The position numbers and the translations under genes were made by a program. From Candidatus Poseidoniaceae archaeon (GTDB taxonomy: Archaea > Thermoplasmatota > Poseidoniia > Poseidoniales > Poseidoniaceae), in contig CAXPMI010000031.1 in the NCBI GenBank assembly GCA_964218365.1, positions 9,940 to 73,939 on the forward strand: a DNA stretch of 64,000 nt, read 5' to 3'. Numbering within the stretch: position 1 is the first letter of the stretch; every line of letters starts with the position of its first letter. This document shows positions 3,099 through 45,073 of this stretch, in pieces. The notes under the pieces were generated by a model. It ran no database searches. It had not been told where the DNA came from and was given only the letters and a program-made list of their open reading frames with translations.

Positions 3099-4766
3099 AT
3101 GCCAACGATTAGTGTAGAGCAATCCCTTCTCAGACATCTAGTCGAAGCGAAAGGAAGGAAGCACGATATCGATGACCTAGCATTTCGATTACCGCTCATG
3201 GGCACGGACATAGACAATTGCGATGAAAATAAATTGGATATTGAAATCTTCCCTGACAGGCCAGACTTACTTTCTCCTGAAACTCTATTCCATGGCATGA
3301 TGCCGTTTTTACATGACTCGCCATCAAACCCAAGACTAGCAGTTAACCCAGGTACAATTTCAATGACCGTTTCTCCAGAATTGGCAACAATAAGGCCTGT
3401 AATTCTTGGTGCTGTAGTGAGAGGAGTCGATATTAATGATGAAATCATCAAACGATTGATGGACCATCAAGAAAAGCTCCACTTTGCCCTAGGCAGAGGG
3501 AGGAAGAGAGCATCGATTGGTGTACATGACCTCTCAACAATATCTCCACCTTTCCGAGTTGAGGCCTCATCCAGGAACCTTTCATTCATACCATTGGCAA
3601 TGGATGAGGAAATGACAATTGATGAAATCTTAAAATCACATCCAAAAGGAGTTGATTATGCACATCTACTAGAAGGGATGGATAAAGTCCCCATAATTTA
3701 CGATTCAAATAATGCCGTATTGTCATTCCCACCAATTATCAATGGTGACCATACAACAGTGACTACGAATACACGTGATCTGTTCATTGATGTAACTGGG
3801 CTAGATTTTAGAGCCTGTGAATCAGCCCTAATGCTAGTTTGCTTACAACTATCCGTACTGGGGGGAAAAATCGAATCGGTCAGAGTTAAGACATGTGAAG
3901 GAAAAGAATGGAGTTTAGATGGCTCTCCTGTTAACCATGTAGTTGAGAGAAGTTTGGTCGAAGGAATCCTTGGTAACTCATTCACTGACGATGAAATTGA
4001 CAACGCAATCCGAAGGATGGGAGGAATATACAACGGTGATTCCCGAGGAAATCTCTCAATTTCTATGCCTAGGTGGAGATTTGACATACTTCACCCAATC
4101 GATTTGGTAGAAGAGGTCGCTATTGGACACGGTTATGATGATCTCGCATATGATGTTCCTAAAGCACCCCTAACTGCAATACCCCGTCAAGATGGTCATT
4201 TGCGACGTAGGATTAGAGAAGCTCTTCAAGGCCTTGGTCTAATTCAAATCCAATCTTTAACACTCTCGAATGACAAAGACCAGTTTGAAAACGTGAGATG
4301 GGTGGCGGATGGAGAAATTACTCGCATGACAAACCCAATCACCATTGAGCACACAATTCTAAGACAGAACATACTGCCGGGTTTGTTGAGACTTTTAGCG
4401 GCCAATCGCCATCATGAACTACCGCAAGGAGTGTATGAATTAGGAAGCGTTGTAATCAATCATGAAAATCGGGATAAATTCGCTTTCTTAGTCGCAGAAA
4501 ATTCAGGTGGCTTTGCATCCCTACGTGGTCGCATTCAATCTCTTATGCGAGACCTTGGTTGCAATGACTGGTCACTTGAAACCATAACGAACGGGCCATG
4601 GTTGGCTGGGAGAGCTGCCAAAATTATCGTCAATGGAACAGTTGTTGGTGAGTGTGGAGAGATTGATCCAAACGTTTCTGAAATGTTTGAATTGAATGTT
4701 CCAATGAGTGGCGCACAGTTTGATGTATCAATACTAGGTAGTGTATTGAGTGACCCGGTTCTTTAA
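3099..4766 (+). CDS. pheT: Phenylalanine--tRNA ligase beta subunit (archaeal type).
   Basis: 555 aa, with a B3/4-like and catalytic-like core typical of archaeal PheT. The ATG at 3099 is preceded by GGTGA and lies 4 nt after the upstream stop. The track ORF start at 3039 overlaps the upstream gene. Confidence 0.85.
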   Translation: MPTISVEQSLLRHLVEAKGRKHDIDDLAFRLPLMGTDIDNCDENKLDIEIFPDRPDLLSPETLFHGMMPFLHDSPSNPRLAVNPGTISMTVSPELATIRPVILGAVVRGVDINDEIIKRLMDHQEKLHFALGRGRKRASIGVHDLSTISPPFRVEASSRNLSFIPLAMDEEMTIDEILKSHPKGVDYAHLLEGMDKVPIIYDSNNAVLSFPPIINGDHTTVTTNTRDLFIDVTGLDFRACESALMLVCLQLSVLGGKIESVRVKTCEGKEWSLDGSPVNHVVERSLVEGILGNSFTDDEIDNAIRRMGGIYNGDSRGNLSISMPRWRFDILHPIDLVEEVAIGHGYDDLAYDVPKAPLTAIPRQDGHLRRRIREALQGLGLIQIQSLTLSNDKDQFENVRWVADGEITRMTNPITIEHTILRQNILPGLLRLLAANRHHELPQGVYELGSVVINHENRDKFAFLVAENSGGFASLRGRIQSLMRDLGCNDWSLETITNGPWLAGRAAKIIVNGTVVGECGEIDPNVSEMFELNVPMSGAQFDVSILGSVLSDPVL

Positions 4767-5689
4767 CCAATTAGCAGTTCACTTTCGGAAATTGCAACAT
4801 TTACGGTTTCGTAGTAAACCATGATTTTGAAGCTGCATGGACCATCACAGAGATTGATTTGATTTTCAAACAACTGGATGGTTTCATTGGAATTCCAGTA
4901 GTCTTTTTCTTCGCTATCAGAAACTATCTTACAAGGAGAGGGGACCACTAGGTTTGGGTCGTCTAAAGCTGGAAAATTGGATTCCCCAATTGCTGCAATT
5001 TGCATAGTTGGATACCTGCTTTCATCATTATCATTGTAATAGGTCAGAAAGTTTACTTTGAATATCAATTCATCCTTAGTAAAGACATACACCCCTTCGT
5101 TTGGATTAACTCGATGTACCGACATATCGTATGTGTACCATTCTAATCTTTCAGAAGTATCATTGTTTAGATCTTCTGGAACCTCGCTAACATCAGACAA
5201 TTCTGCGCCTTCAATAAATGCCCAAGAAACCCCCTCTGAGAGATAGATGTCAGTAGATGAAAACTTCATCCAATAATCTGTTCCATTTGATTCCATCTGA
5301 CCTGGTAAGTCAAAATGAGTGTATGATTCAGAATCTGTCGCATCAATCTCTGTTGTAAATGTGAAACCGTCTGCACTTAACTTCGGAGTAACCTTACCGT
5401 CCATGCCTGTAGAGTTGGATTGTGCACCGAACGAACATCCATATGATGTTTCATCGATGATGAGATTAATCTCAAGTGATGACCATGAGAGGTCTTCGGC
5501 ATCTTCATCAAAACTCAGTTCGACGAGTATGTTGTCTTCTCGGTTATCACTCACTGAGTTTTCAGAATTTACTAGTATGACGTTTGATGTGCCTAGTTCT
5601 GACTCATATGTAGCGACCAAATAGGTCCAAACTGCCGCTGCAACAACAACCGTGACTGCTGCTGCAGCGGCTAGTTTTTTCCAATTCAT
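4763..5689 (-). CDS. Hypothetical N-terminally membrane-anchored/secreted acidic protein.
   Basis: N-terminal TM/signal KKLAAAAAVTVVVAAAVWTYL. It starts 7 nt after the stop of the upstream fasciclin gene, so is likely co-transcribed. Confidence 0.6.
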   Translation of the reverse strand: MNWKKLAAAAAVTVVVAAAVWTYLVATYESELGTSNVILVNSENSVSDNREDNILVELSFDEDAEDLSWSSLEINLIIDETSYGCSFGAQSNSTGMDGKVTPKLSADGFTFTTEIDATDSESYTHFDLPGQMESNGTDYWMKFSSTDIYLSEGVSWAFIEGAELSDVSEVPEDLNNDTSERLEWYTYDMSVHRVNPNEGVYVFTKDELIFKVNFLTYYNDNDESRYPTMQIAAIGESNFPALDDPNLVVPSPCKIVSDSEEKDYWNSNETIQLFENQINLCDGPCSFKIMVYYETVNVAISESELLIG

Positions 5690-5695
5690 ATGGTA

Positions 5696-7678
5696 TCACA
5701 GCTCGGTGTCTTGACGCTTTCTTGCGAACAGGACTGCACCTAGTGTTGCAAGAATTGCTGTTAATCCTAGGAAGCCAGGTGTATTATTGTCTTCCTTGTC
5801 ATCCTTGTCCTCATCGACTACTGCTGGTTCAGCTCCACCGTCTCCAACGATAATCTTTCCAAACATCTCTACTCCAATGTGTGGTTCACACGCATAGTAG
5901 AATGTGGTATCTTCATTAAAGGTATGATGGAAATCAACAGTCTTTGCAGCTGCACCGGAATATACTCCATTTTCCACGTAGGTCGTAGACTTCAATCCAG
6001 CGACTTCTTTGACATTGTGAGCCATAGATTCGTCAGTCCACTTCCAGCAAACTGTTTCACCAACTGCAATTGTTGCAGATGCTGGAGTGAATCCATATCC
6101 ATCCGATGTGATTCCGATTGTTGCTGCACAAACAACTTCTGGTTCTTCTGGCTCTGTAGGCTCTTCTGTTGGTGGTATTATCACCTTGTCGATCACGTGG
6201 ATGACACCGTTACTTGCTGGAACGTCTGCAAGCACTACTGTTGCTGCTTCTGCTCCAACTGTCACTACTCCCTCAGCAACGGTAACAGTTAGTTCATCTC
6301 CGTTTGCCGCTGTAACAGTATTAGCACCATCAACTAAGTCAGTTGATGCTATTTCTCCTGCCACGACGTGGTATAGAAGAATATCAGCAAGTGTTGCAAT
6401 TTCTTCATCTGTGGTGAAATCGGCTAGGTTGATTCCTGCTGCAGCGAATGCTTCGTCTGTTGGTGCGAATACTGTGTAGTTATCTTCACCGGAGAGGGTA
6501 TCTACCAATCCTGCAACACCAAGAGCAGCAACAAGTGATGTGTGGATAGATGTTGCTGCCGCTGTCATTGCGATGTTGACAGCTGCAGTCCACATGTAAG
6601 AGTCACACACTGCTTCACTTACGTTTGTTATTTGGTGAGTTACTGTGTTGTAGCATCCTGTGTAGGTTTGACCGTTCATTTCTGTGTTGTTTAGATACAT
6701 GTATCCTTCACATTCTGCTTGGTCTGCACCAGCAACGATTGTGTGGGTTTCCATGTTGTAACAGATTTCCCCTTCTGCTACTTCTGGTGGCATTAGCACC
6801 TTGTCGATAACGTGGATCACACCATTACTTGCTACGACGTCTGCTTGTGTTACAGATGCGTCATTAACAATCACGCCGCCTGGAGTAACTCCAACTCTTA
6901 CCTGCTGTTGATTAAGCATGGTTACGAATAGACCATCACTTAGGTCACCGGACAGCACAGCGCCAATGGTGACGTGATAAGCAAGAATGTTACTTAGAGC
7001 AGCAATGCCATCCTCATCTGTAAAGTCAGAGAGGTTTATTCCTGCGTCGATGAATGCTTGGTCAGTTGGTGCAAATATTGTGTATGGCCCGTCATCAGAT
7101 AGAGGATATAGTAGGCCTGCTTGAATGATTGCGTCAACCAAGACATCGTGCACACCAGTGCTAGATGCAATTGTTGGAATGTCACCGGGGCCGTCTTCGG
7201 GAGGCATCAGAACCTTATCGATGACGTGGATTACTCCGTTGCTAGAAACAACGTCTGCTAGTGTAACAGTGGCGTCGTTTACCGTGACATCATCGCCAAC
7301 TCCAATAGAAACATTGTCACCATTTAGAGTTTCAACACTCATTCCGTCTGTTAGCGCTGAGGACAGCACTTCACCAGAGACAACGTGGTATGTCAGGATA
7401 TCGACTAAAGTCTGGTTTGCTTCATCGGTATCGAAGTCTGCCAAATCAATTCCTGCATCACTGAATGCCTGGTCTGTTGGTGCGAAAACTGTGAAAGGTC
7501 CGTCACCGGATAGTATGTCTACTAATTCAGCGTGGGCGAGTGCAGCGACCAAGGAATTGTGGTTGCCGGTTTCCGATGCATTTGTTGGTATGTCTTTGGT
7601 TTCATCTGCTGATACTGAAAGCGGTATAGCCGACAACAGCAGCAGGGCAATTAGTGTGGTTGCGAGTCTTCTCTGCAT
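5696..7678 (-). CDS. Secreted surface protein with three fasciclin (FAS1) domains, a Cys-rich linker, a plastocyanin-like type-1 copper (cupredoxin) domain and a PGF-CTERM archaeosortase sorting signal.
   Basis: Three repeats of TVFAPTDxAF...SNGVIHVIDKVLMPP (FAS1). YYACEPHIGVEM is the C-x-x-H-x4-M blue-copper ligand motif, with an upstream His in ESMAHNV. The C-terminus TPGFLGLTAILATLGAVLFARKRQ is a PGF motif plus TM plus basic tail. A signal peptide starts at MQRRLATTLIALLLLSAIPLSVSA (7678); the track ORF start is 7744. Confidence 0.85.
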   Translation of the reverse strand: MQRRLATTLIALLLLSAIPLSVSADETKDIPTNASETGNHNSLVAALAHAELVDILSGDGPFTVFAPTDQAFSDAGIDLADFDTDEANQTLVDILTYHVVSGEVLSSALTDGMSVETLNGDNVSIGVGDDVTVNDATVTLADVVSSNGVIHVIDKVLMPPEDGPGDIPTIASSTGVHDVLVDAIIQAGLLYPLSDDGPYTIFAPTDQAFIDAGINLSDFTDEDGIAALSNILAYHVTIGAVLSGDLSDGLFVTMLNQQQVRVGVTPGGVIVNDASVTQADVVASNGVIHVIDKVLMPPEVAEGEICYNMETHTIVAGADQAECEGYMYLNNTEMNGQTYTGCYNTVTHQITNVSEAVCDSYMWTAAVNIAMTAAATSIHTSLVAALGVAGLVDTLSGEDNYTVFAPTDEAFAAAGINLADFTTDEEIATLADILLYHVVAGEIASTDLVDGANTVTAANGDELTVTVAEGVVTVGAEAATVVLADVPASNGVIHVIDKVIIPPTEEPTEPEEPEVVCAATIGITSDGYGFTPASATIAVGETVCWKWTDESMAHNVKEVAGLKSTTYVENGVYSGAAAKTVDFHHTFNEDTTFYYACEPHIGVEMFGKIIVGDGGAEPAVVDEDKDDKEDNNTPGFLGLTAILATLGAVLFARKRQDTEL

Positions 7679-7791
7679 TGCGCCGCAACGAATTGCATTA
7701 GTATATACCATTTTGTTTCGATACGCACAGAGAAACCGCAACACGTAGCATAAATGCGCTCCATTATTATGTATGAAGCCCTACAAAGCAT

Positions 7792-23765: not shown

Positions 23766-24272
23766 ATGCCGAGGCTGAAACTAACCGCTATCGACGAAGG
23801 TTATACTGTCGTGGTATCATCGAGGCTACTTGGTGCAGATGACCCAGAGTTAGTTCAGGATGCAATATTGAAATTGTTTCCAGACTTCACCTGTGGGCTA
23901 CCTGAAAGCCCAAAATTCCCTAGCGAACAAGATGACATACTGGCATCAGATAATGTTAGCATGCAAACATTCCTTGAGGTAATACACAACCAATTTATTC
24001 TCGATACTGCCCTAGATTATATGTCAGCAAACCTAGACGAGAATGGAACCGTGTTTCACATTTCAAGACAGGCTGCGATGGCAGGGAAGGTTGCCTTTCC
24101 GCTTCCTGGAGAAAGCCCACTAGGCGGCCTTATTACCATAGAAATCGAAGGAGACAACCTAGGTGATTGGCTTGAGGCTGCTACTTGGCATAGCGGCCGT
24201 GAAAACATACCTAGAAGAATTGGTGATGAGTTTTCTATGCAGAGTGACGGTGATGCTTCAACTTGGCACTGA
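23766..24272 (+). CDS. Hypothetical protein (168 aa).
   Basis: Clean ORF with no recognisable motif. Its convergent 3' end overlaps the pcp-nudix gene by about 38 nt. Confidence 0.45.
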   Translation: MPRLKLTAIDEGYTVVVSSRLLGADDPELVQDAILKLFPDFTCGLPESPKFPSEQDDILASDNVSMQTFLEVIHNQFILDTALDYMSANLDENGTVFHISRQAAMAGKVAFPLPGESPLGGLITIEIEGDNLGDWLEAATWHSGRENIPRRIGDEFSMQSDGDASTWH

Positions 24273-25182
24273 TGGCATTTGCAATATCCCTGTCAGGCCC
24301 AAGCCATTCTACTTCATCTGGACCATCGCACCACTGTGTTTTGTCGTGCACGTGTAGTTTCATTTCCCCACCAGAAATGAAACACTCCATGACATGAAGC
24401 CGTACAACTACATCACCGTGGTCAAATATCCATTCACCAATCAATTCACCTGTAGTAACATCGAGTTCTAACTCTTCTTTGATTTCTCTAATCAGACACA
24501 TTGAAGCATTTTCACCATCTTCAAATTTACCACCCGGAAATTCCCACCATCCTGCGTGCTTTTCTGATTGGGCCCTTCGTGCTGCCAAAAACTTACCATT
24601 GTGAATAATTGCTCCTGCACCAACATTGAGACAAGGTGGTCTAAGCATACGATCCAAGCATTGCAGAGCAAGCCCTTTTGCATCGCTTTGACTTAATGGC
24701 AGGTGAAGGAAAAAGCAAGGCGTTCCGTCCTTAATATTCATCAACGTCCTGTAGAGGGTCTCGTTACAGATATATTCTCCTGCATCCTCGCTAATCATAG
24801 GTGAATCAACCATCGATGATATGTCCCAATCATTGGGGTTTATTGTTGACGATATGTCACCTTTTCCACTTATTTTCCTATTGCTAACTTCTCTTCCAGA
24901 ATTATCAGGAATTCTAAAATCCAAAATATCTCTGGCCTTTATTTCGATTCGGGGATGTGCAGAATTGGCTGCTAAACCAATGTGAAGAATCGCTGCAAAT
25001 TCCTCTTCATCTAACATACTAGCAACTGTGTTGCTACCCTCAAAGTCTACAGAAAGAATCAGTGAACGTATTTTGTGGCCACGTACTTCCATACCCTCAA
25101 GAGATTTGGCTACACCCTCAGAGACGTTTATTTCATGTTCGCCGAATGCTTCGAAACCGGTAACAAGAATCGGCTTCGCCAT
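24235..25182 (-). CDS. pcp: Fusion of pyrrolidone-carboxylate (pyroglutamyl) peptidase I with a MutT-like Nudix hydrolase domain.
   Basis: Pcp: N-terminal ILVTGFEAFG, catalytic Cys in AGEYICNETLY and His in FFLHLP. Nudix box: GWWEFPGGKFEDGENASMCLIREIKEELEL (GX5EX7REUXEEXGU). Confidence 0.8.
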   Translation of the reverse strand: MAKPILVTGFEAFGEHEINVSEGVAKSLEGMEVRGHKIRSLILSVDFEGSNTVASMLDEEEFAAILHIGLAANSAHPRIEIKARDILDFRIPDNSGREVSNRKISGKGDISSTINPNDWDISSMVDSPMISEDAGEYICNETLYRTLMNIKDGTPCFFLHLPLSQSDAKGLALQCLDRMLRPPCLNVGAGAIIHNGKFLAARRAQSEKHAGWWEFPGGKFEDGENASMCLIREIKEELELDVTTGELIGEWIFDHGDVVVRLHVMECFISGGEMKLHVHDKTQWCDGPDEVEWLGPDRDIANAISAKLKHHRHSA

Positions 25183-26788: not shown

Positions 26789-29700
26789 TCACTTACTATT
26801 TTGTAGATATTGGTGACCATAATGGTTCCATTGTTCCATAGTCCATCCTTCCGGCAAGCCAGTTGGTGGTAATGGAGGTGTAGCGGCACCCGCCCCTTGC
26901 GGTGCTAGAGGTTCGTTCTGCACAGGAGCTACAGGGGCAGCTTGCTGGATTTCAGGAACCATCTTAGTATCCATGTTCTCAATAACCTCAGCAGTTTGGT
27001 CAGATTCGTCAACTTCTTCACCACGACGAATTCTTCGCATTTGTACCATTGTCCAAACAGCGAACGACATCGAAACCAATGCAATCAGATACATAATTAC
27101 AGATAATTGAGAATCTGCAACTTGATTTGCGAGTGCTGTACCGTCTCTTTCGACTTCTTCTTTAACCAATAGTGGCGAAATTGAGATTCTTTCTTTTTCT
27201 ACCCCAGAGTCTAGCAGAAGAATCCTGTGTTCTAGTGTATCATCTACTGCTCCGTCGGCGGTAGCTTCTAGCCTAACTTGGGCTGTCTTGCCACTCGAAA
27301 TTTGAATCGACGAAGAGGATATAGTTGCCCAGTCATCACCAGAAACGAGCCTCTGCAGAACGAATGTCACAGTACCTGATGCTCCTGTGTTTCTGGCCTC
27401 GATGGTAAGTGATACTGCTTCATTTGGAGTTGGAGTTGGATTAGACCATTCCCATGTAGTATCTGCCGCTCTCAGACTAACCTCAGGACCTGTCAAGGCC
27501 AGTGGCCAAGATGCCAATGGGTCAGCGACAGTATTTCCTTCACTGTCGTAAGGATTTCCTGACTCATCTGAACCTGTGACCCAAACGTCAATTGTATACG
27601 ATGGAAGGAGCATGGTAGCACCTCCATCAGTCAGGTCAAGATATCCAGTCCAGAAGAATTGGTCTTCGAATGGCGTAGTATCCGGCAGTGGAGATGATCC
27701 TCTACTGATTTCAGCCTCACCTGCTCTGACCAAGTAATGTAATACTGCAGGATCGTCGAGAGAGAATCCTTGGTCATCTCGTGTTTCAAGCATGACTTGC
27801 AAATTGTTTGCAAGGGAAATCGGAATTTCCTGATTTGGTTCTATTCCTCCCAAAGTTACAGCATGAATTGAAGGTCTTTCACTATCGACTGCTAATCTCA
27901 GTCGTGGTTTGAATTCGGATTCATCTTCAGCAAGGCCTGGGAGGTCTTTCAGTTTAGCACGTAGGTCAAGGTGACCACTTCTAACATCTGGTACAAGCAT
28001 GTCAATACTGAAGTATCCTCCTTCTCTGCTTGTAGTTGTCCATTCATTTTCAAAATCTCCTAGAGAGATTGTGAAAGAGCCTGCAGGAGCAGGAGTCTCA
28101 TCCTCTGAGAAGATTACTCTTCCACTGAAACGAAGAGCTTGTCCTGCACCAATCAATGATTCATCAAATTCAGGATTGTAATGGTTTGTTCCATCTCGCA
28201 ATTCAATCGCGAGAATGTGACCCGGTTGAGTGTCAAAGCGCAAGTCATTATCTAGGCTCCACAAATCATTTCCAAGTCCGGCTTTGTGTATGTTACAAGG
28301 AAGGTCTGTGTCAATTCCACAGGACTTATCTTCAATCCAGACTTTCGGAATAAAGTGCTCATTACCGTTTGTGTCCCAGACCTCAGGGAAGTTCCAAGTC
28401 AGTTGGAACTTAATCGATACAATCATTCTAGATTGGAGCTCTGGGTCCAAAATAATCGAAGAATATAGATTGGAAACAGCCAATCCAGTGCCTCCACTCT
28501 CAAGGTACATCTCAGGCATTCCCATTGAGTTTTGTGAAATGTAGGCAAAAATTGAGGTTTCATCATCATCGAAATCACCAGCTAGCGCCAAGTGTACGAA
28601 TTCTACGTCCCACCATCCATTGATATCAGAAATCATGAATGTTGCAGTGTATGGAATCCCGGGATGTAATGGAGCCATATCATCGTGACCCGTTATGGTT
28701 GAATTATCTACATCCATAATCGGTTCAAACTCCTCTCGGATTGTGTACCAGGATAGCGAGTTATCCCAATCAGGTTTGACTTCACCAGGCTTGTCCCCAC
28801 AGAATCCACCAGATTCTACGTCACAAACAGGTGAACCACCCATGGCAATGGTATTATTTTGACCATCTTTCCCTGTTACATAGAAGGCTACTTTATCTCC
28901 ATGAACAAGCATTGAATCATCGATTAATCCGTTGAAAACGTTCAAACCACCTGGTAATATTTCAGGAGTGGTTAGAGTCTTTGAGCGATATTCGATCGGC
29001 TCTGCTAGTCCATTGAAATTAGAATCATCACATCTTTCATTGACTCCTGCCTCACAACCAATCCAGTAGTGAAGGTCTACGGTTTGTGGAGGAGCAACAG
29101 AATCCTGAATGATTATTTCAATTGCTTGTCCGCCGGGAGAAGGGGGACCTTTATGCATCTCTGATGAAGATTCAGGACTTGCGAAGAGTACCAACGGTGC
29201 ATTGCCGTCAAAAATTAACTTGATTGTATTGTAACCCGGGTTGACATATGTTGAACCATTTTCGAGTTCGGTTGCTTCTACGTAGAGAACCATGCCACCT
29301 GGTTCAGATTCTATTGGGGATGCAAAAGTCATGTTATACTGTCCAAATCCAGGATTTCCTTCAGTATGAAGTACAGTAGGTTCTCCAATAGGGTCACCGT
29401 CGTAAGTTACATTTTGACCGATAACTCTGAGTGTAAATTCACCTGCTCTTGGTGAGAATGCTGAATTTTCAAAGTTGATTCCTCCAGTAATCGAGATATT
29501 CAATCCTCCTCGAACCCAATCGCCGGAAAACAACCCCCTTCCTGTTTCTTCCCATACCCTCATTCCATCTAACTGGATATCGTTCTCGATGTTCAGAGCG
29601 AGCGTGTCTGTTGTCCAACCACTAACTTGTGGACCTAGGTCATCACTCAAGGAAACTATTGCTTCCATCTTCCTCTCATCATCCCATGTCCAATTGACTC

Positions 29701-32146
29701 TGAGTGGCATTTTAACCGATACAATTCCCTCGCTGTCCGTTGTTGAAGTACAATTTCCGATATCGAACTCGACGATACCTCCGCCATCACTCTCAACCGA
29801 ACACGAATCGCCACGTAGCCATCTAAATGCTGGGTTTTCCCCATATGAATTATTCAAACCAATCGTAGCCTCAGTGACACGGTCAACCAAATCCCCGTGT
29901 GCTAATCTGACTACTAAATTTCTGTATACACCATCAGGAGCAATCAAGCCTCCTTCTAGGCTTGCATCCAATACTCTAGTGTTGAGTCTGTATTTGATGT
30001 CAAGCTCAGTAAGTTTGACTCTTCCTGGGGTATTTGCTTTGACTGCTATGGGTATTTCGACTGTGCCAATCCCATTCTCCGGGATGTGGTCGTTAAATGC
30101 ATCTACAAGGCTCGGAGTTTCAGATACTACCGTTCCAACCGGAGAATCATCAGATGCAACAACCGAACTCTCATTCAAGAATAGAATTGACTTCCAATCC
30201 CAGTCACCATCATCTCCTACATCCAACTGAGGAGCGTCGGGATACCCTTCTTCATACCACAAGATGAAGGAGTCTACGGCAGGAGTGACTGTATTGTCAG
30301 TAGTTCCCAAAATTATGGAATACAGGAGTTCATTTCCAGCGCCGGAGGTTGAAAATGAAACTTCTTGATTGTTTGTTGCAGACTCCCACGTTGAGCCGTT
30401 ATCGTTAGAGACCATTACGCTAATGCTCGAACTTGAGGGCTCATCTGCTGTCCAAACGGCTCTAACTTTACCGACATTAGTGCCTGTTGAGACCTTTTGG
30501 CTTGTCCAGTCTCCAGAGCTTTGGTATGAAGTAGCGTATTCAAGAGAGACCCACCAAGATACAGCTGATGAACCAATGAGTTGCATTTTCCAAACTAATT
30601 TATTTCCTGGGTGTGTGAAGTGAATGGTTTGGTTTTTCTCAACTGCTTCCCAGTGAGTACCGTTATCTGCACTTACCCAGTAGTCAACTCTGTCACCTTG
30701 TGATGGAGCAGACCAGTGGTTCATGAAATTAACAGCAAGAACGTCATCTTCGGTTACTATAGTCTCACCGATCCATGTTGTGGTACCAGGTGCAGGTGTT
30801 GTAGGGTAGGAAATTCCGATTCCAAATTCACGGTAGTAAAGAGTCTTTGAATTCCATGTTGAATATCCAGTATCAACTGTAATGATTCTCTCACCGTTGT
30901 AGAAGAGTCCAAGTCCTTTCGCAGATATATCCTTAGTTCCGGTTTGTGGCACTAGTGAGGAAGAACTGCCTGAAATGGCCCAAGCGCTTAGTTGGTCTGT
31001 ATCTTGGTAGTAACTACCTTTCATGCATCTCATGTAGAAGAAGCCGGCATGAACTACAAGTCCGTGCACGTTGCTGGAGGTTTTGCCACACTCGGTGCTA
31101 GAGGATGAGCTTGAAGTGAATGAATACTGTTCTTCTCCTCGAGTAAATTGTCCATTATCTCCAAAATCGTAAGACACGATTCTCCTCTGTTGTCCATGAG
31201 CAACCCAAATTTTGTCACTATCCCTGTCATATGAAATCGCACTGTACTCGCCATATTGCGGTGAAATGTCGTAGGAGTCAACACAACGCCAAACCCAATC
31301 ATCAGAGACATCTATTGCCAGAACTCTGCTGTGCTGAGTTGGGTTTGAATTACCGTACATGTACTTGTATGTTGTAAAAATCCCATACAGCATTTCTTCG
31401 TCATTAATGGTCCAATCTTTGAAGCCGTAAGACTTGTAATAAGTCGAACTTGGATCCTGTGGCAGAGTACAAGCCGCTTCCTGTTGCAAGTCAACAACGA
31501 TATCCCTCGTAACGTTGTTTGGGTGCATTCTTGTTACTACCTTGTCAAACTGGGTGCCAGTAAATGTTGACATGAAAAGCCAATCATGGTTCTCAAGAAT
31601 TGCCCCTTGGCCTTGAGCCATCAAGTTTGAACTTGTCATTTTGACTTGATTGCTGAACCTTGATTCAGTGGAGTTTGCGGTGTGAGGTTGGCGTATCGCA
31701 AAACTACCATTGTCCAACCAAGCATCAGAACCAGGTAGAGTTTCTTCATTCATCCCATGAGATAAAAACTCTACATCACTATCATCGAATCCAAGGGTTA
31801 GATCTCCACTTCGTGCGTCACTTTGACTAGACACACCATCCATCCATTCATCATATGTATCAGTTGATACTTGGGACCAACCTGTTGATGAAGCACCAGA
31901 GAGTGTTACTTGCACATCGAGCACTTCAGCCCCCTTTGGGATTGCCACTAAAGTCGTCTTGTCTGCTCCTCCTTGATACAGTGCGATATTTTCAATACTC
32001 CCGTCAGAAAAAGTGTAAATGTGGCGAGATGAACCGTTTGCTTCCGCCTCGGTGATGAACATCTCTGAAAACGGACTCATCGGCGTAAGAACGAGAATGA
32101 ATACCATAATCGACAGCGCGGCACGAGATGAAAATTTCTGCTTCAT
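26789..32146 (-). CDS. Giant secreted surface protein (1785 aa) with a signal peptide, a W/N/T-rich extracellular region, a C-proximal TM anchor and a Pro-rich cytoplasmic tail.
   Basis: N-terminus MKQKFSSRAALSIMVFILVLTPMSPFSEMFITEAEA. The C-terminal TM is VIMYLIALVSMSFAVWTMV, followed by ...PPLPPTGLPEGWTMEQWNHYGHQYLQNSK. There are many N-x-S/T sequons. Confidence 0.85.
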   Translation of the reverse strand: MKQKFSSRAALSIMVFILVLTPMSPFSEMFITEAEANGSSRHIYTFSDGSIENIALYQGGADKTTLVAIPKGAEVLDVQVTLSGASSTGWSQVSTDTYDEWMDGVSSQSDARSGDLTLGFDDSDVEFLSHGMNEETLPGSDAWLDNGSFAIRQPHTANSTESRFSNQVKMTSSNLMAQGQGAILENHDWLFMSTFTGTQFDKVVTRMHPNNVTRDIVVDLQQEAACTLPQDPSSTYYKSYGFKDWTINDEEMLYGIFTTYKYMYGNSNPTQHSRVLAIDVSDDWVWRCVDSYDISPQYGEYSAISYDRDSDKIWVAHGQQRRIVSYDFGDNGQFTRGEEQYSFTSSSSSSTECGKTSSNVHGLVVHAGFFYMRCMKGSYYQDTDQLSAWAISGSSSSLVPQTGTKDISAKGLGLFYNGERIITVDTGYSTWNSKTLYYREFGIGISYPTTPAPGTTTWIGETIVTEDDVLAVNFMNHWSAPSQGDRVDYWVSADNGTHWEAVEKNQTIHFTHPGNKLVWKMQLIGSSAVSWWVSLEYATSYQSSGDWTSQKVSTGTNVGKVRAVWTADEPSSSSISVMVSNDNGSTWESATNNQEVSFSTSGAGNELLYSIILGTTDNTVTPAVDSFILWYEEGYPDAPQLDVGDDGDWDWKSILFLNESSVVASDDSPVGTVVSETPSLVDAFNDHIPENGIGTVEIPIAVKANTPGRVKLTELDIKYRLNTRVLDASLEGGLIAPDGVYRNLVVRLAHGDLVDRVTEATIGLNNSYGENPAFRWLRGDSCSVESDGGGIVEFDIGNCTSTTDSEGIVSVKMPLRVNWTWDDERKMEAIVSLSDDLGPQVSGWTTDTLALNIENDIQLDGMRVWEETGRGLFSGDWVRGGLNISITGGINFENSAFSPRAGEFTLRVIGQNVTYDGDPIGEPTVLHTEGNPGFGQYNMTFASPIESEPGGMVLYVEATELENGSTYVNPGYNTIKLIFDGNAPLVLFASPESSSEMHKGPPSPGGQAIEIIIQDSVAPPQTVDLHYWIGCEAGVNERCDDSNFNGLAEPIEYRSKTLTTPEILPGGLNVFNGLIDDSMLVHGDKVAFYVTGKDGQNNTIAMGGSPVCDVESGGFCGDKPGEVKPDWDNSLSWYTIREEFEPIMDVDNSTITGHDDMAPLHPGIPYTATFMISDINGWWDVEFVHLALAGDFDDDETSIFAYISQNSMGMPEMYLESGGTGLAVSNLYSSIILDPELQSRMIVSIKFQLTWNFPEVWDTNGNEHFIPKVWIEDKSCGIDTDLPCNIHKAGLGNDLWSLDNDLRFDTQPGHILAIELRDGTNHYNPEFDESLIGAGQALRFSGRVIFSEDETPAPAGSFTISLGDFENEWTTTSREGGYFSIDMLVPDVRSGHLDLRAKLKDLPGLAEDESEFKPRLRLAVDSERPSIHAVTLGGIEPNQEIPISLANNLQVMLETRDDQGFSLDDPAVLHYLVRAGEAEISRGSSPLPDTTPFEDQFFWTGYLDLTDGGATMLLPSYTIDVWVTGSDESGNPYDSEGNTVADPLASWPLALTGPEVSLRAADTTWEWSNPTPTPNEAVSLTIEARNTGASGTVTFVLQRLVSGDDWATISSSSIQISSGKTAQVRLEATADGAVDDTLEHRILLLDSGVEKERISISPLLVKEEVERDGTALANQVADSQLSVIMYLIALVSMSFAVWTMVQMRRIRRGEEVDESDQTAEVIENMDTKMVPEIQQAAPVAPVQNEPLAPQGAGAATPPLPPTGLPEGWTMEQWNHYGHQYLQNSK

Positions 32147-38991: not shown

Positions 38992-40029
38992 ATGAGGTCA
39001 CAACGCAAGTCCGGAAGTGACCTCGCCGTCAGTGAAGTCATTGGTGTCGTGATGCTGCTTGCGATGGTAATCACAATGATGGGAGGAGTGTTTGTATTTC
39101 TTACCCCATATGTGAATGATTTTCAAGATAATACCGCATGGTCAAACGCAAATGGGATTGCGGAAAGGCTAGACGGAAGAATCGATGTCGTTGCAGGAGC
39201 AAGTGCAGACACCGGACTTAGAACTACAATTCCCTTGACTATGAGCTCGATTTCTCCTATAATAAGTGCAGAAGTATGGACTGTTTCTGCTGATTTGACT
39301 GCGGGAGAGACTGTCACGGTCAATTACATCAATCAAACAACATTCAGTATACTATCGGAAAATGAAACAGCAGACCGTGCGGTAATATGGACAGAAGGTG
39401 GGGAAGTCGAAATATCATTCAATGAAACATACGAAGAAATTTTGATTAAACACAATTTGAGTGTTGCAGACATTTACATTGTAACAGTGTTCGATGGAGA
39501 GAATGAGATACACAAGCATGCAAAGATACCAATTTCAGGATTAATGGTAAAGACCAAAGTTCAGACTGGTGAGCATTCGATTGGACTCCTGAATGATGCT
39601 CGTTACGACAAATTCACTGATGAAACCTGGAGTATAACTTCGTCTCCTGACATGAATATTGAAGAGTTATTTGATGGCACAATGAGAGCTAGTTTGTCTC
39701 TGAGAGACGTAGACACAGTTGGTGCAATTCCAGACGGTAGAAACGCAATCTTCGATATCCGTTCAGAAGGTCCGATTACCCTGTTTAGTGGTGATGCATG
39801 GAATTTCAGATTTACATTTGACTCATCACTAGGACCAACTGTCGCCCCACAGATGACAGAGGGATGGTTAACCGACTACAACCTTCACAGAGCGTCGAAT
39901 ACTCTAGACCAACATAGAGGAATCAGTCCTTGGTTGAGGGCAAGTGGAATCGATGGTATGACAATCGACCACGGCAATTCTGTAATCGATCTTGAAATCG
40001 AATTGCAATTGGTGGAGGTTAGCAGATGA
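38992..40029 (+). CDS. Archaeal type IV pilin-like protein (class III signal peptide), 345 aa.
   Basis: N-terminus MRSQRKSGSDLAVSEVIGVVMLLAMVITMMGGVFVFL. It has a charged n-region, a small residue, then VSE (Glu at +3) and a long hydrophobic helix, as in archaeal prepilins/DUF1628-type pilins. Confidence 0.65.
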   Translation: MRSQRKSGSDLAVSEVIGVVMLLAMVITMMGGVFVFLTPYVNDFQDNTAWSNANGIAERLDGRIDVVAGASADTGLRTTIPLTMSSISPIISAEVWTVSADLTAGETVTVNYINQTTFSILSENETADRAVIWTEGGEVEISFNETYEEILIKHNLSVADIYIVTVFDGENEIHKHAKIPISGLMVKTKVQTGEHSIGLLNDARYDKFTDETWSITSSPDMNIEELFDGTMRASLSLRDVDTVGAIPDGRNAIFDIRSEGPITLFSGDAWNFRFTFDSSLGPTVAPQMTEGWLTDYNLHRASNTLDQHRGISPWLRASGIDGMTIDHGNSVIDLEIELQLVEVSR

Positions 40030-42074
40030 TGCAAAATAACCTCCGCAGGGACGAGGAAGCAGTTAGCGCTGCTGTAGCCACCGTTCTACTCTTTGGAGGA
40101 GTAATTTCAATTATTGGAATTATGCTACTTTCCTTGATGCCAGTTATACAAGAATTAGAAGGTTCTCTCAAGAGAAATGATATGCAAGCCCAAATGGAGA
40201 TAATGGCTCACGAAGTAACATTATTGTCTGAATCCGGATTACCTGGCGACTCTAGTCAAGTCCAACTTATTCCGGTTGATGGTGAATTACGATGGGATAG
40301 ACTCAGAGGAGGAATGTGGTATTCTGCATCTTGGTATGAAGGTGATACTTTCAGAATCCAAGGGGCTCTAGACTTGGACCGAAATATCGACGTAAGGCAT
40401 GCCGAAAGCAATGTACAGGCGATTTGCTATGAAGATATGAGACTAGGTCCAGACAGACCATTCATATTCTCCCCAAATAATCAAACCGATACAATACTAG
40501 TAACACCTAAACATGGTTTGACAATACCCCTCGGTCCTGTTGAAATTGAACACGCAGGAATAGAGCACTCTCTTTCGATAGGAGAGGTTATGAGTTTAGA
40601 TTCAAACCACCAAATCAAATCAAGTCATGATTTGGTTGGCTTACAGATAAGAGGGGATTCGGGAGTTGCACTTATGCCACCTTCCAAGGCAAATCCCTCA
40701 ACTGGTAAGGGGCAACATTGGGCAATTCCTCTACCAGTGGGAGAAACTACAATCGAAGTCTTCGCAGACGATGACATCCTCGTTCAATGGCAGACTCTAA
40801 CTGAATCTGGGCAAGAAGCAATACCCCAAACCACAGCTGTTAGAATAGCAAACTCATGGACAAAAACATTCAATCTATCAGAGATTAGTTTAGTGGAGAT
40901 AGTTACTGACGTCGATGCTCATCTGATTATTTCTCATGGCAATTCTGGTAAAACCTCACTGTTGGGAGAAGAGGGGAATTATCTCTCTAAGCACTTCATA
41001 GCGCCTTCGCAATCTGGGAATTTATCGTTCTCTAATCCGAGTCAAAATGCTGCAACAATTACATGGAAAAATGGCGGCATATCTGTACCTGCCAACCAAA
41101 CCATAGAAGTTGAGTGGCCTCCATCTAATATCGATAGTGCTGCGATCTTAGAAAGTAGCGAGAATGTTCTCGTTCAGTGGAAACTAAATGACAAAGGAAT
41201 GACATTCTTACCTGCAACCGACACAGGTCAAATCACTGGACTAGATTTCATTGAAGATAATTCACAGACGATTATCAACCATTCTTCTGAATATGGTGAC
41301 TATCAATCAAAATTGGCAAAAGATGGGAATTCGGGAATTCTTGCGCTAGAGGATGATGGAGCTATGCGCTGTGTCGCAATAGACCAGACTGCATCCGGAT
41401 GGATTTCAACTACCCTGCCGTGGAAATCAATGAATGGTATACCCGAAGGGCAGATCATCACTGCTTGGAGAAATGGAGATCACCCCGCAAGTATTGAGAT
41501 AACTTTGATTGGGACAGAAGGAGATGCAACTCACGCTAACTTAGCAACAGCATGGGCATTCCATATATCGAGATTAACATACGAATTTGATACCTCGATT
41601 ACAGGCCTTGAAGTTGCATGGTCTGCCGGTGCAATTGTTACAAATCATCCCGAGTTAGATCCTACAATATTAGTTGGACCAACAGACAGACAGGGCCCAG
41701 GGCCAAGGTTCAGTGCAACAATACCTTCGATGCACCCTACTCAAACATCAGTTACTGGTAGCGGGATAATGAACCTTGATATCGAACTATCAATGAGAGA
41801 AAGTCTTGCCTCTACAACAGCCTATGATGTGAGGAGAGGGTGGGTAGGTCCGTATGGAGATGCGGTTGCTTCTTGGGCAAGTACAAGCCTAGAGACTTCC
41901 GAAGACTGGATAGTTAATCCCGGAAGAATTGACTTGCTTACAGACTATGTTGGTTGGGTCCCTGTTCCTACAGTTGGACCTAGTGAAGCCGTATGGCATA
42001 CAGCAGGTCAGCCAATACAGTTCAATCTGCAAATTAGCAGCCTAGATGTTGAAATTTCGGAGGCGGGGTCATGA
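40026..42074 (+). CDS. Archaeal type IV pilin-like protein, large (682 aa).
   Basis: N-terminus MMQNNLRRDEEAVSAAVATVLLFGGVISIIGIMLL. Its start overlaps the upstream stop (ATGA), which suggests an operon. Confidence 0.65.
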   Translation: MMQNNLRRDEEAVSAAVATVLLFGGVISIIGIMLLSLMPVIQELEGSLKRNDMQAQMEIMAHEVTLLSESGLPGDSSQVQLIPVDGELRWDRLRGGMWYSASWYEGDTFRIQGALDLDRNIDVRHAESNVQAICYEDMRLGPDRPFIFSPNNQTDTILVTPKHGLTIPLGPVEIEHAGIEHSLSIGEVMSLDSNHQIKSSHDLVGLQIRGDSGVALMPPSKANPSTGKGQHWAIPLPVGETTIEVFADDDILVQWQTLTESGQEAIPQTTAVRIANSWTKTFNLSEISLVEIVTDVDAHLIISHGNSGKTSLLGEEGNYLSKHFIAPSQSGNLSFSNPSQNAATITWKNGGISVPANQTIEVEWPPSNIDSAAILESSENVLVQWKLNDKGMTFLPATDTGQITGLDFIEDNSQTIINHSSEYGDYQSKLAKDGNSGILALEDDGAMRCVAIDQTASGWISTTLPWKSMNGIPEGQIITAWRNGDHPASIEITLIGTEGDATHANLATAWAFHISRLTYEFDTSITGLEVAWSAGAIVTNHPELDPTILVGPTDRQGPGPRFSATIPSMHPTQTSVTGSGIMNLDIELSMRESLASTTAYDVRRGWVGPYGDAVASWASTSLETSEDWIVNPGRIDLLTDYVGWVPVPTVGPSEAVWHTAGQPIQFNLQISSLDVEISEAGS

Positions 42075-42541
42075 CAAATAGATTGGTCGATGACGAATCT
42101 GGAGCTAGCACTGAACTTGGCTACATTTTCACATTCATGCTCGGAGTATTGTTCCTCTCAATGTTTAGTGTCTGGGCGTTTGGCTTAGAAACGTCAACTA
42201 GGGAGAACTGGAATAGAACTGCTGTAGATGTTAACATGGCAGATATTGCTGCTGCGGTTGAAAGGGCCGATATGGCAAGCAGAGAAGACTCTAGTGTGAG
42301 TTACGCAGAAGTAGTGACATGGAGATTAACCGAAGCAGACGAGACCGACTTTGTTCTCACCTTGGATGACACTGGACTATCACTCGATCATAGCGAGAAT
42401 GAACTGGACAGAGAAGTTTCGATATCTGGAACGGGATATGGTACATATGATGGAAGAATCAATCTTTCAGGGACTGCAGAGATTTGGGTCGTTTACCACG
42501 AAGGTGTGACCTATCTCTCAACAACTAGACCAGATTTCTGA
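42071..42541 (+). CDS. Archaeal type IV pilin-like protein, small (156 aa).
   Basis: N-terminus MTNRLVDDESGASTELGYIFTFMLGVLFLSMF (DDxxGxSTE plus hydrophobic). Its start overlaps the upstream stop. Confidence 0.6.
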   Translation: MTNRLVDDESGASTELGYIFTFMLGVLFLSMFSVWAFGLETSTRENWNRTAVDVNMADIAAAVERADMASREDSSVSYAEVVTWRLTEADETDFVLTLDDTGLSLDHSENELDREVSISGTGYGTYDGRINLSGTAEIWVVYHEGVTYLSTTRPDF

Positions 42542-45073
42542 TTATCTGCCCATTACAGCGGTGTGTACCATCATCTGTACTTCCCGCATTCTTGTCTGAG
42601 CGCCTAATTCTCGGAAGACCGATAATGCCCTCTGAAGATATTCCATCCTCCGTTGTCTATCGGGGGCAACTCCGCCTAATCTTGCTAATAATTCGCCGAT
42701 TTGCATGCGCAAATCGTTTGCTTCAGAGATGACCAGTGCTTCTCGATATCTTTCCAAAGCTTCCTCGATTCTACCACTGTCCTGGAGAACCTCTCCTAAC
42801 AAAATCGAAACTTCCACCAATGCTAGCGGATCTCCTGCTTCTCCCATTGTGGATAGTGCATCTGTGTAATGATGTAAAGCCAGGTCTGAATCCCCAGTCT
42901 TTGCATAATATCTTCCAAGTACAGCTCTTGCTCTTGCGTGCAATATCGCATCATCACTCGATTCAGACCTCTCATAGGAAGACAATGCATGGTCTCTTGC
43001 TCTATCACTCTCACCTAAGTCGAGTAACGCTCTTGCTAAAACGATCTGGGCAGGAATTAGTTCTGTGGAATCATTCCCCGACAAAATACTCTCTACTTCA
43101 CCATAAGCCTCCAGTGCCTTAGCTTTGTCACCGTTTCTACGCAGGATATATCCCATGTTGTTATAGGAGCGAGCAGCACCTACTGCATCGCCCATAGAGA
43201 TGAATAATTCCAGAGCCTTTCTGTGCATTCCAAGGCTTCCATCTGAATCTCCTCGCTTCAAAGCAATGTCTGCTAAATTCGAAACAATGTCTGCAATAAC
43301 GTCGTCTAAACCGGCAGCTTCAGCTGGTGGTTTTGCTTGGTTGAATGCTTCTTCTGCCTCATCGAAACGACCGAGTAGAGCTAATACCTCTCCCCTGAGT
43401 CTATCTACCCTACATGCACTATCTGCACCTACTGATTTTGTATCGATAGACTCTAGTAAACCCAATAATTCAATGTGACCTTCCTTGATTAAGTCTCTAC
43501 CTTGTTCCACTACTAATTTTGTGGCATCTTCGTGCCTTGAAGAAGAAATTAGGTGGTATATTAACTCAAGAGCAATCTGACTTGATGTGGCTTGTTTAGT
43601 GTACCAGGCAACCGCTTTGTTGTGAAGATCTTCTTTGGATTGTTTGTCCAGACTTTGTAGAAGGAATTCCCGAATTAGGTCGTGAACATCATAAGTTCCA
43701 GAATCGGCATTGCGAGCCAGGCCAGATTCTACTAGGGAATCTAATTCATCAGTATGTAGACCTTGTTCCGTTAGAGCTTCTAACTCGATAGGTTCACGGA
43801 ATACAGATAGAGCACCAAGCAAGCGTTTTTGCTCTCCTGAGAGCTTAGAGAAAATCTCGATATTGACGTAATTCTCTAGAGATTCGTGGAATGCACCTGC
43901 TGATGCCCCGCGGTTAATCAACTCCAAGACTAGAGGGTGACCACGGCTCAAGGAGTGTATGTAGAGTAATTTTTCTTGGTCCAAGTCATCAAAGGCAGAG
44001 AGAAGAGACCTAGTTGATTCTTGGTCCAAGCCTTCTAATGGGAGAACCAGTGAAACTATCCTTCCATCAGCGTCTTTGAGGGGAACAACCTCTTTGAAAG
44101 AGCGAGAGAATATTACTAGTCCAACATCACCTTCACACTCGACAAGACCTCTAGATAATGCTTGAATTGTTTGATGTAGAGTCTTATCACTTACTTTGTG
44201 GTAATCATCAATCACGATTAGAGCAGGTGTGTTAGCAAGAGAATCAACAATAATTCTTGCTGCATCAGCAGACTTCGGAACTGGAGTAGCAGATATGTAA
44301 TCGGCCAACATTGAATCCCCGATATTTGATAGCCAGTCAGCGATGCCCTCCAAGAAAGCTCGACTTCCTTCCCAGTCTTGACATCGATGATACATCAAGT
44401 TCCTTCGATGCATGAATGATTCAATCACTTTTGCTGCCATGGAGGTTTTTCCGATACCTGCAATCCCTGGTACCATCAAAGTTGTAGACCTAGCCTCAAG
44501 AAGATTAACCATATTTTCTAATTCGGTAGACCGGCCATAAAAGTGCCTTAACCTCGGTAGGTCACCAAGGCTAGTAACAAGTTGTTTCTCAACATGCTTT
44601 GAGAGATCTCTTTCAACTAGGTCTGCAGACAGTGAGCGGACATCCAAGACTCCGTTGTCATCTAGGTATCGTATTACATCAACTGGCCTCATAGTAAATG
44701 GCAACTTATCTTGGATTTCTCCAAGCGTAGATGCGATGGTGTTTCCACCAGGTAGAATTGCTCTGAGTTGGAATTCCCTAAGGTTCTTCCATGTCTCATC
44801 AGCCAATTTCATTCCAGATTCTGTTAAGAAGTAGGCCTTCCTCTTTCTGCTAACCCCTTGAACGTGAGCTTGCCTCTCGATTAGAAGTCCTTGATCCTTC
44901 AAACCAGCAATTGCTCTAGGGACGTTGGAGCGAGCGATTGCAACTGCATTTGCGATACCCATTTGTGATAGAGCAAATGGTACCTCGACTGAACTCATGA
45001 AGTCCGAGAAGTCGGAAAGATGTAGAAGAATCCTCTCTTGAACACCCGGCTTTGGTCTAGTCGCCATACTCAA
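42542..45073 (-). CDS. STAND-class signal-transduction NTPase with an N-terminal winged-helix DNA-binding domain, an NB-ARC-type P-loop ATPase and C-terminal TPR repeats (AfsR/MalT-like architecture).
   Basis: The N-terminus has a wH-like segment (GIANAVAIARSNVPRAIAGLKDQGLL). FYGRSTELENMVNLL is the (F/V)GRExEL hallmark. Walker A is VPGIAGIGKTSMA and Walker B is ALIVIDDYH. There are several TPR-like repeats in the C-terminal 350 aa. Confidence 0.8.
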   Translation of the reverse strand: MSMATRPKPGVQERILLHLSDFSDFMSSVEVPFALSQMGIANAVAIARSNVPRAIAGLKDQGLLIERQAHVQGVSRKRKAYFLTESGMKLADETWKNLREFQLRAILPGGNTIASTLGEIQDKLPFTMRPVDVIRYLDDNGVLDVRSLSADLVERDLSKHVEKQLVTSLGDLPRLRHFYGRSTELENMVNLLEARSTTLMVPGIAGIGKTSMAAKVIESFMHRRNLMYHRCQDWEGSRAFLEGIADWLSNIGDSMLADYISATPVPKSADAARIIVDSLANTPALIVIDDYHKVSDKTLHQTIQALSRGLVECEGDVGLVIFSRSFKEVVPLKDADGRIVSLVLPLEGLDQESTRSLLSAFDDLDQEKLLYIHSLSRGHPLVLELINRGASAGAFHESLENYVNIEIFSKLSGEQKRLLGALSVFREPIELEALTEQGLHTDELDSLVESGLARNADSGTYDVHDLIREFLLQSLDKQSKEDLHNKAVAWYTKQATSSQIALELIYHLISSSRHEDATKLVVEQGRDLIKEGHIELLGLLESIDTKSVGADSACRVDRLRGEVLALLGRFDEAEEAFNQAKPPAEAAGLDDVIADIVSNLADIALKRGDSDGSLGMHRKALELFISMGDAVGAARSYNNMGYILRRNGDKAKALEAYGEVESILSGNDSTELIPAQIVLARALLDLGESDRARDHALSSYERSESSDDAILHARARAVLGRYYAKTGDSDLALHHYTDALSTMGEAGDPLALVEVSILLGEVLQDSGRIEEALERYREALVISEANDLRMQIGELLARLGGVAPDRQRRMEYLQRALSVFRELGAQTRMREVQMMVHTAVMGR

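Follow-up and report, generated by a model that had tools for sequence, protein, structure and literature searches.

What does a blue-copper domain do in a protein that otherwise looks built for adhesion, and how is such a protein held at the cell surface? This question is raised by an open reading frame (ORF) of 660 residues at 5696-7678 on the reverse strand of a 64,000-nucleotide stretch of DNA from a Candidatus Poseidoniaceae archaeon, referred to here as the window. The ORF is a real gene of an uncultured ocean archaeon belonging to Marine Group II (MGII). Its product is laid out in the order signal peptide, FAS1 (fasciclin) domain 1, FAS1 domain 2, Cys-rich insert, FAS1 domain 3, Pro/Glu-rich linker, cupredoxin domain, acidic linker and PGF-type tail. 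An earlier note, made from the letters of the sequence, had described 3 FAS1 domains, a cupredoxin and a PGF tail; that architecture was borne out, and all of the motifs quoted in the note are present. The reading that we cautiously favor is that the whole protein is a C-terminally anchored, halocyanin-like one-electron carrier of Marine Group IIa with an outward FAS1 array. The features of the gene are as follows.

5696-7678, reverse strand: FAS1-cupredoxin ORF, 660 residues, read from the translation.
7701..7709, reverse strand: TATA-like box GGTATATAC, approximately 25 nt upstream of the ATG at 7678, read directly.
7607..7678, reverse strand: signal peptide, residues 1-24 (MQRRLATTLIALLLLSAIPLSVSA, then DETKD), with a basic n-region, a hydrophobic core and an SVSA cleavage-type motif.
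7199..7597, reverse strand: FAS1 domain 1, residues ~28-160 (best PF02469 stretch 39-159), with terminal motif SNGVIHVIDKVLMPP at residue 146; AlphaFold predicted local distance difference test (pLDDT) ~80-90.
6785..7186, reverse strand: FAS1 domain 2 (PF02469), residues ~165-298, with terminal motif SNGVIHVIDKVLMPP at residue 284.
6584..6781, reverse strand: Cys-rich insert, residues 300-365, two copies of a 36-residue tandem repeat with C306, C323, C342 and C358.
6170..6571, reverse strand: FAS1 domain 3 (PF02469), residues ~370-503, with terminal motif SNGVIHVIDKVIIPP at residue 489.
5843..6133, reverse strand: cupredoxin (type-1 copper) domain, residues 516-612, from PF00127, PDB sequence matches, AlphaFold and Foldseek.
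6017-6019, 5888-5890, 5879-5881 and 5864-5866, reverse strand: codons of the copper ligands H554, C597, H600 and M605, respectively, verified.
5789..5842, reverse strand: acidic low-complexity linker DGGAEPAVVDEDKDDKED, residues 613-630, read directly; variable in orthologues, AlphaFold pLDDT below 50.
5699..5788, reverse strand: PGF-type tripartite tail NNT-PGF-LGLTAILATLGAVLFA-RKRQDTEL, read directly; helix 635-659 in the AlphaFold model.

The copper domain was assessed by profile, by alignment and by predicted fold. The earlier note had named the Pfam Copper-bind and Fasciclin profiles and structure prediction as checks on its proposal. Copper-bind (PF00127) matched residues 521-611 with 41 bits, above its gathering cutoff of 21.2. 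The ligand motifs can be read directly as ESMAHNV, which contains H554, and C597-E-P-H600-I-G-V-E-M605, a spacing of C-x2-H-x4-M. A phmmer search of PDB sequences returned cyanobacterial plastocyanins (E 6.5e-9) as well as pseudoazurins and amicyanins, and H554, C597, H600 and M605 coincided, position by position, with the copper-ligand positions of Synechocystis plastocyanin 1j5c, the H, C, H and M in its motifs HN and C-E-P-H-x4-M. Among 292 related domains, H554 was retained in 291, C597 and H600 in 290 each, and M605 in 283. The complete type-1 ligand set in plastocyanin spacing that had been claimed for this protein is therefore near-invariant and in register with a plastocyanin. AlphaFold modeling of residues 512-620 with a 35-sequence alignment gave a confident cupredoxin fold (pLDDT 95.2, predicted template modeling score 0.86), and the best 50 Foldseek matches in the PDB were all cupredoxins, with plastocyanin, pseudoazurin and amicyanin on top (E ~3e-8, template modeling score 0.6-0.78). 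Taken together, the sequence register and the fold match suggest that the domain binds copper at a type-1 site.

The domain did not fall into a curated family. Its top NCBIfam family was the halocyanin domain (TIGR03102), at 51.7 bits, far under the curated cutoff of 93.8, and the equivalogs for plastocyanin (TIGR02656, 30.0 vs. 87.9 bits), amicyanin (TIGR02657, 28.6 vs. 110.2 bits) and pseudoazurin (TIGR02375, 24.6 vs. 109.9 bits) were also missed. As judged by these scores, it is a cupredoxin with a full type-1 site that lies outside every curated equivalog. It has the fold of plastocyanin, pseudoazurin and amicyanin (PF00127), and its ligand loop matches that of plastocyanin; the pseudoazurin loop is also C-x2-H-x4-M. 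However, those proteins are soluble single-domain carriers of bacteria and plastids, whereas here the domain is the membrane-proximal module of a 660-residue archaeal protein and carries an additional Cys pair, C517/C544.

The Pfam Fasciclin profile (PF02469) matched 3 stretches of the protein (E 6e-93, 307.9 bits against a gathering cutoff of 22), and the shared terminal motif was read directly in all 3, as the earlier note had stated. Its placement of a Cys-rich segment just before the cupredoxin was wrong; the segment, with its 4 Cys, sits between FAS1 domains 2 and 3, and the spacer between FAS1 domain 3 and the cupredoxin is the Pro/Glu-rich linker. The repeat in the insert follows the pattern C-Y-N-x2-T-H-x-[IV]-x7-8-C-x2-[YF]-M-[YW]. 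It is kept in orthologues, occurs also in the related proteins P0129 (five copies), P0135 and P0152, and matched no Pfam family; the full-length AlphaFold model had a pLDDT below 50 across it. MPB70, Fdp and periostin/βig-h3 likewise are secreted or surface proteins with FAS1 domains in tandem, but the fusion of FAS1 to a cupredoxin was found here only in marine Poseidoniales-type relatives.

Longer readings of the ORF are possible, from a GTG at 7744 or an ATG at 7711. The ATG at 7678 is the likely start because most orthologues have the N-terminus MQR[RK] and because GGTATATAC, a putative archaeal promoter element, lies at the distance given above. The full-length AlphaFold model includes an N-terminal helix. 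With a signal peptide assigned from sequence features, the product is predicted to be a Sec-exported, membrane-tethered surface protein.

An identical protein has been deposited in 3 NCBI metagenome-assembled genomes (MAGs) of Candidatus Poseidoniaceae as "fasciclin domain-containing protein", the window sequence corresponds to part of contig JBMZZN010000004.1 (GCA_049630285.1), and one relative bears the JGI label 'transforming growth factor-beta-induced protein'. We scanned one genome per GTDB species with residues 500-660 and obtained 27 loci with 52-97% identity, all in Poseidoniales-type MAGs; one of these MAGs is labeled Salipiger and is evidently mis-binned. In the 25 orthologous genes, the number of FAS1 domains ranged from 1 to 5, with 3 and 4 the commonest, these numbers being approximate since they are motif counts on ORFs taken from the first Met. 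The cupredoxin pattern C-x-P-H-x4-M was present in 24 of the 25; the gene at locus L034 did not match. No FAS1-cupredoxin fusion outside marine Poseidoniales-type relatives turned up in the protein and GTDB-species searches made, and we know of no description of one elsewhere. No mention of fasciclin or cupredoxin was found in the papers searched on Marine Group II or Poseidoniales. The layout is unstudied and confined to the marine Poseidoniales lineage; every part is of a known kind, and the databases already contain the sequence with an automatic annotation.

A HMMER search with the copper domain against 1.84 billion representative proteins gave 1212 matches at E ≤ 0.001. The nearest non-fused relatives were stand-alone cupredoxins of 150-200 residues, 47-53% identical in the copper domain and ending in xTPGF, a helix and basic residues; they come from MAGs of marine Euryarchaeota, Poseidoniales and Thalassarchaeaceae. 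Two genomic slots are common to fused and stand-alone forms. In the slot between enolase and a gene for a protein resembling glucose/sorbosone dehydrogenases (GSDH-like), the fused gene directly follows enolase in L029-L035, and L041 has a gene for a 2192-residue protein and then a stand-alone copper gene. In the slot beside a short-chain dehydrogenase/reductase (SDR) gene and a small Rieske gene, L004 has the fused form and L039 the stand-alone form. From the existence of the stand-alone PGF-tailed relatives and the 2 common slots, we infer that the fused protein arose by addition of FAS1 domains to the N-terminus of a stand-alone PGF-tailed cupredoxin.

The mechanism that we propose starts from the membrane. 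The PGF-type tail would hold the exported protein there, either as a transmembrane (TM) helix or after being swapped for a lipid by an archaeosortase. The copper domain, about 20 acidic residues from the anchor, would lie at the outer membrane face and would most likely carry single electrons, as halocyanin is thought to do, to a haem-copper terminal oxidase in an organism lacking a canonical bc1 complex. Pointing away from the cell, the FAS1 domains and Cys-rich repeat would form an adhesion or envelope module of variable copy number. Two observations from the literature are in favor of the one-electron carrier role. A canonical bc1 complex is missing from MGII genomes, although these have genes for cytochrome b, a Rieske protein and low-affinity cytochrome c oxidases (PMC6336850), and halocyanins are predicted one-electron donors to haloarchaeal terminal oxidases, some being fused to the oxidase subunit CbaD (PMC3403918).

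Halocyanin of Natronomonas pharaonis (TIGR03102) is the closest known counterpart. It too is an archaeal, membrane-tethered, small blue-copper domain with a His/Cys/His/Met site, its family was the best NCBIfam match here, and it has been proposed to supply the terminal oxidase with single electrons in aerobes without a soluble cytochrome c (PMC3403918). However, the anchor of halocyanin is a lipid at an N-terminal lipobox (PMC12462473), in contrast to the C-terminal PGF-type tail of this protein, and halocyanin has no FAS1 array. The halocyanin-CbaD fusions of Halobacterium and Haloarcula are a precedent for an archaeal cupredoxin joined to another extracytoplasmic or membrane module (PMC3403918); there the partner is an oxidase subunit and reveals the function, whereas here it is an adhesion-type array. 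By analogy with halocyanin, a role in electron transfer at the surface is plausible; redox activity, the proteins with which electrons would be exchanged and any processing of the tail are predictions.

Several results weigh against a halocyanin-like carrier. The halocyanin and plastocyanin family cutoffs were missed by far, and the ligand geometry was judged from the fold match and the register of the sequence. In none of the loci examined did a respiratory gene (cox, cytochrome b or membrane Rieske) adjoin the FAS1-cupredoxin gene. In addition, the part of general carrier would suit the stand-alone cupredoxins better, and the fused form may be more specialized.

The alternative that survives best concerns the anchor. 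The earlier note had taken the C-terminus for a PGF-CTERM signal and had concluded that the organism possesses the archaeosortase ArtA. The tripartite layout stood: PGF (634-636) abuts the hydrophobic helix LGLTAILATLGAVLFA, which is followed by RKRQ, with a low-complexity linker before it on a secreted surface protein, all as in PGF-CTERM proteins. The profile score did not: the tail alone reached 13.7-14.7 bits with the PGF_CTERM model (TIGR04126), missing the cutoff of 24.5. An ArtA system in this organism is thus a prediction from the tail. It is possible, if somewhat doubtful, that MGII lacks archaeosortase A and that the tail is a plain conserved TM anchor, making this a type-I membrane protein with a short cytoplasmic RKRQDTEL that undergoes neither cleavage nor lipid attachment. 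Heimdall-CTERM scored 19-20 bits on the same tail, and the TIGR04126 score was no better than that of Heimdall-CTERM or of the TM part of LPXTG_anchor, which suggests that these models mainly detect a generic pattern of TM helix plus basic residues. Four to five residues extend beyond the basic cluster, unlike in a canonical PGF-CTERM signal.

The distribution of the tail is also consistent with a plain anchor. In the MGII sequence examined, only cupredoxin-containing proteins carried it, whether FAS1-fused, stand-alone or with other N-terminal regions, so that it may have been inherited as a membrane anchor, as opposed to being one of many signals read by a sortase; the distinct sequence covered by this count of carriers amounts, by rough estimate, to about 9% of one genome. 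Neither the window nor ~620 kb of related loci (~175 kb distinct, again by rough estimate) contained an archaeosortase ORF, and the deposited contig runs 2 kb past the window end. The window held no polytopic ORF of 200-420 residues, and the 3 polytopic ORFs in related loci had no Pfam match or matched CDP-alcohol phosphatidyltransferase. A protein search for unrelated carriers with the 42-residue PGF tail of P0139, a related MGII cupredoxin, gave no candidates, and none of the papers searched linked archaeosortase with Marine Group II.

Conservation of the PGF itself argues the other way. PGF was present in 27 of 27 GTDB species (NTPGF in 25 and DAPGF in 2), abutting the helix even though the adjoining linker varies freely, and the whole of PGF, TM helix and basic residues was retained in the orthologues of all 27; the loss of PGF in relatives that the earlier note had named as refuting its claim was not seen. 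N632, P634, G635 and F636 were invariant in alignment A2. Related MGII cupredoxin tails scored 12.9-28.2 bits with TIGR04126; that of P0158, whose cluster is labeled 'PGF-CTERM protein' by JGI, passes at 28.2 bits, and that of P0139, at 24.5 bits, is exactly at the cutoff. The generic PGF model is known to overlook lineage-specific PGF tails, the domain being short (PMC9723798). In Haloferax, permutation of the PGF is reported to block processing.

Four further observations touch the tail. We ruled out that the N-N-T sequon ahead of PGF is a conserved glycosylation site, since its first Asn is E, D or S in other species, N632 itself being kept. A second, very strongly conserved tail, LPS[VI]GF-x-G-x-LVL[VI]GAAGLRRRIH, occurs on cupredoxin-bearing proteins P0140-P0189 (e.g., P0150, P0152 and P0171) from 'Candidatus Thermoplasmatota archaeon' MAGs, the full-length ones being 900-1340 residues, and may be a distinct sorting signal. 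In L035, a gene at 1074-1823 on the reverse strand, ~5 kb from the FAS1-cupredoxin gene, encodes a CDP-alcohol phosphatidyltransferase, and one at 61954-62562 of the window encodes a CDP-archaeol synthase. In Haloferax, ArtA-dependent lipidation requires enzymes of this class; the closeness of the former gene to the FAS1-cupredoxin gene is probably coincidental.

A different alternative, which we consider unlikely, is that we are dealing mainly with an adhesin or envelope glycoprotein, whose copper domain serves copper capture, copper homeostasis or structural stability and not respiration. Most of the protein is FAS1, and FAS1-only paralogues of ~1100 residues occur in the same organisms. Adhesion has been stressed as a trait of the MGII lineage (PMC6461757), and the lack of nearby respiratory genes in the loci examined also fits. 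However, a complete, near-invariant His/Cys/His/Met type-1 site in plastocyanin loop spacing is a signature of electron transfer and not of copper storage or trafficking, and the number of FAS1 domains drops to one or none while the copper domain and tail stay.

The remaining alternatives turn on neighboring genes, which are listed here with their positions in the window or in related loci.

4763..5689, reverse strand: downstream co-oriented gene of 308 residues, starting 6 nt past the stop codon of the FAS1-cupredoxin gene (spacer read directly).
L029 11398-12435, L031 10519-11598 and L041 8524-9624: GSDH-like gene, with equivalents in L030 and L032-L035.
L004 10341-10727, L006 97-453 and L039 5756-6115: small homologous Rieske genes (118-128 residues), less than 4 kb from cupredoxin genes.

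The 308-residue protein had been put forward in the earlier note as the probable partner of the FAS1-cupredoxin protein, a claim that stood in part. In 19 of the 27 GTDB loci, the FAS1-cupredoxin gene is immediately followed, in the same orientation, by a homologue of the 308-residue gene; these loci include L029 and L033, which lack the pheT, rnhB and orf790 synteny; retention of the gene where the other synteny is gone argues for a real gene pair. On the other hand, the gene is deleted in the otherwise syntenic L008, L020, L026 and L028 and is also missing from L030-L032, L034 and L035, so it is not obligatory. It is a conserved, frequent but dispensable companion, a term that fits better than partner. 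The family is small and restricted to this lineage, and its members have an N-terminal membrane anchor and 4 invariant Cys. It gave 426 database matches, the named ones listed all being 'hypothetical protein', and the organisms given were marine archaeal MAGs (Candidatus Poseidoniaceae, Thermoplasmatota and Euryarchaeota). Pfam HmuY was matched weakly and below threshold by 7 of 14 members (best E 1.3e-4), and a profile search of PDB sequences with the family found no match.

A second synteny class comprises 8 loci in which the gene after the cupredoxin gene, be the latter fused or stand-alone, encodes a secreted GSDH-like protein of 345-366 residues. This protein weakly resembles glucose/sorbosone dehydrogenases that depend on pyrroloquinoline quinone (PQQ), with 24.3 bits for PF07995, below the cutoff of 25, and E 6e-10 for TIGR03606; the gene is absent from the window. 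Downstream of another stand-alone cupredoxin is a gene for a 598-residue PQQ_2 beta-propeller. These neighbors raise the possibility that the cupredoxin is dedicated to taking up electrons from an adjacent extracytoplasmic oxidoreductase (the HmuY-like 308-residue protein here, the GSDH-like beta-propeller in sister lineages) and hands them on to respiration, in the manner of amicyanin with methylamine dehydrogenase. The 6-nt spacing, the 19 loci, 2 of them without other synteny, and the 2 kinds of beta-propeller neighbor are in its favor. Nevertheless, we regard it as distinctly improbable: the family matches of the neighbors are all under threshold, the 308-residue gene is deleted in 4 syntenic loci, the PDB profile search was empty, and this window has no GSDH-like gene. 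The small Rieske genes occur in 3 different contexts, twice with an SDR gene alongside; lacking both a signal peptide and a TM segment, their products would be cytoplasmic and were therefore rejected as redox partners.

It is very unlikely that the protein is a major lipid-anchored MGII surface glycoprotein, processed by an archaeosortase system new to Thermoplasmatota, whose envelope copper center passes electrons from secreted dehydrogenases (GSDH-like or HmuY-like) or particle-bound substrates into respiration.

Other features of the window were recorded. A 3179-residue protein at 50921-60460 on the reverse strand begins with a multi-TM STT3/AglB oligosaccharyltransferase (PF02516) continues with ~2400 extracellular residues of CarboxypepD_reg-like repeats and ends in a TM helix, which makes it an unusually large N-glycosylation enzyme. 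Short cytoplasmic Trp-rich tails (..GWIWDAQTNQW.. and ..YTWRAMDDGNTYWWTGTEWQKY) are found on large secreted type-I membrane proteins at 26789-32146 and 45121-49416, both on the reverse strand, and on the FAS1-only paralogues P0073-P0120. A pilin-type cluster lies at 38992-42541 on the forward strand; its 3 genes encode pilin-type hydrophobic N-termini, the first 2 match DUF7289 and the first also matches Pilin_N. A STAND-type NTPase with TPR repeats lies at 42542-45067, and a protein in which pyroglutamyl-peptidase and NUDIX are joined lies at 24235-25182, both on the reverse strand.

Few archaea of the surface ocean are as abundant as those of Marine Group II, none of which has been cultured. 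The 2 main MGII genome surveys, when text-searched, contained no mention of plastocyanin, halocyanin, cupredoxin or copper protein. The family of PGF-tailed cupredoxins, stand-alone and FAS1-fused, is an obvious candidate for the missing MGII electron carrier. The finding does not overturn known biology, as all of the parts come from known families, and it raises the question of whether archaeosortase-type C-terminal anchoring extends beyond halophiles and methanogens. The fused form suggests a physical link between surface architecture and redox function in MGII cells. Were the very unlikely reading given above, that of a lipid-anchored glycoprotein fed by secreted dehydrogenases or particle-bound substrates, to hold true, attachment and extracytoplasmic electron harvesting would be coupled in one molecule.

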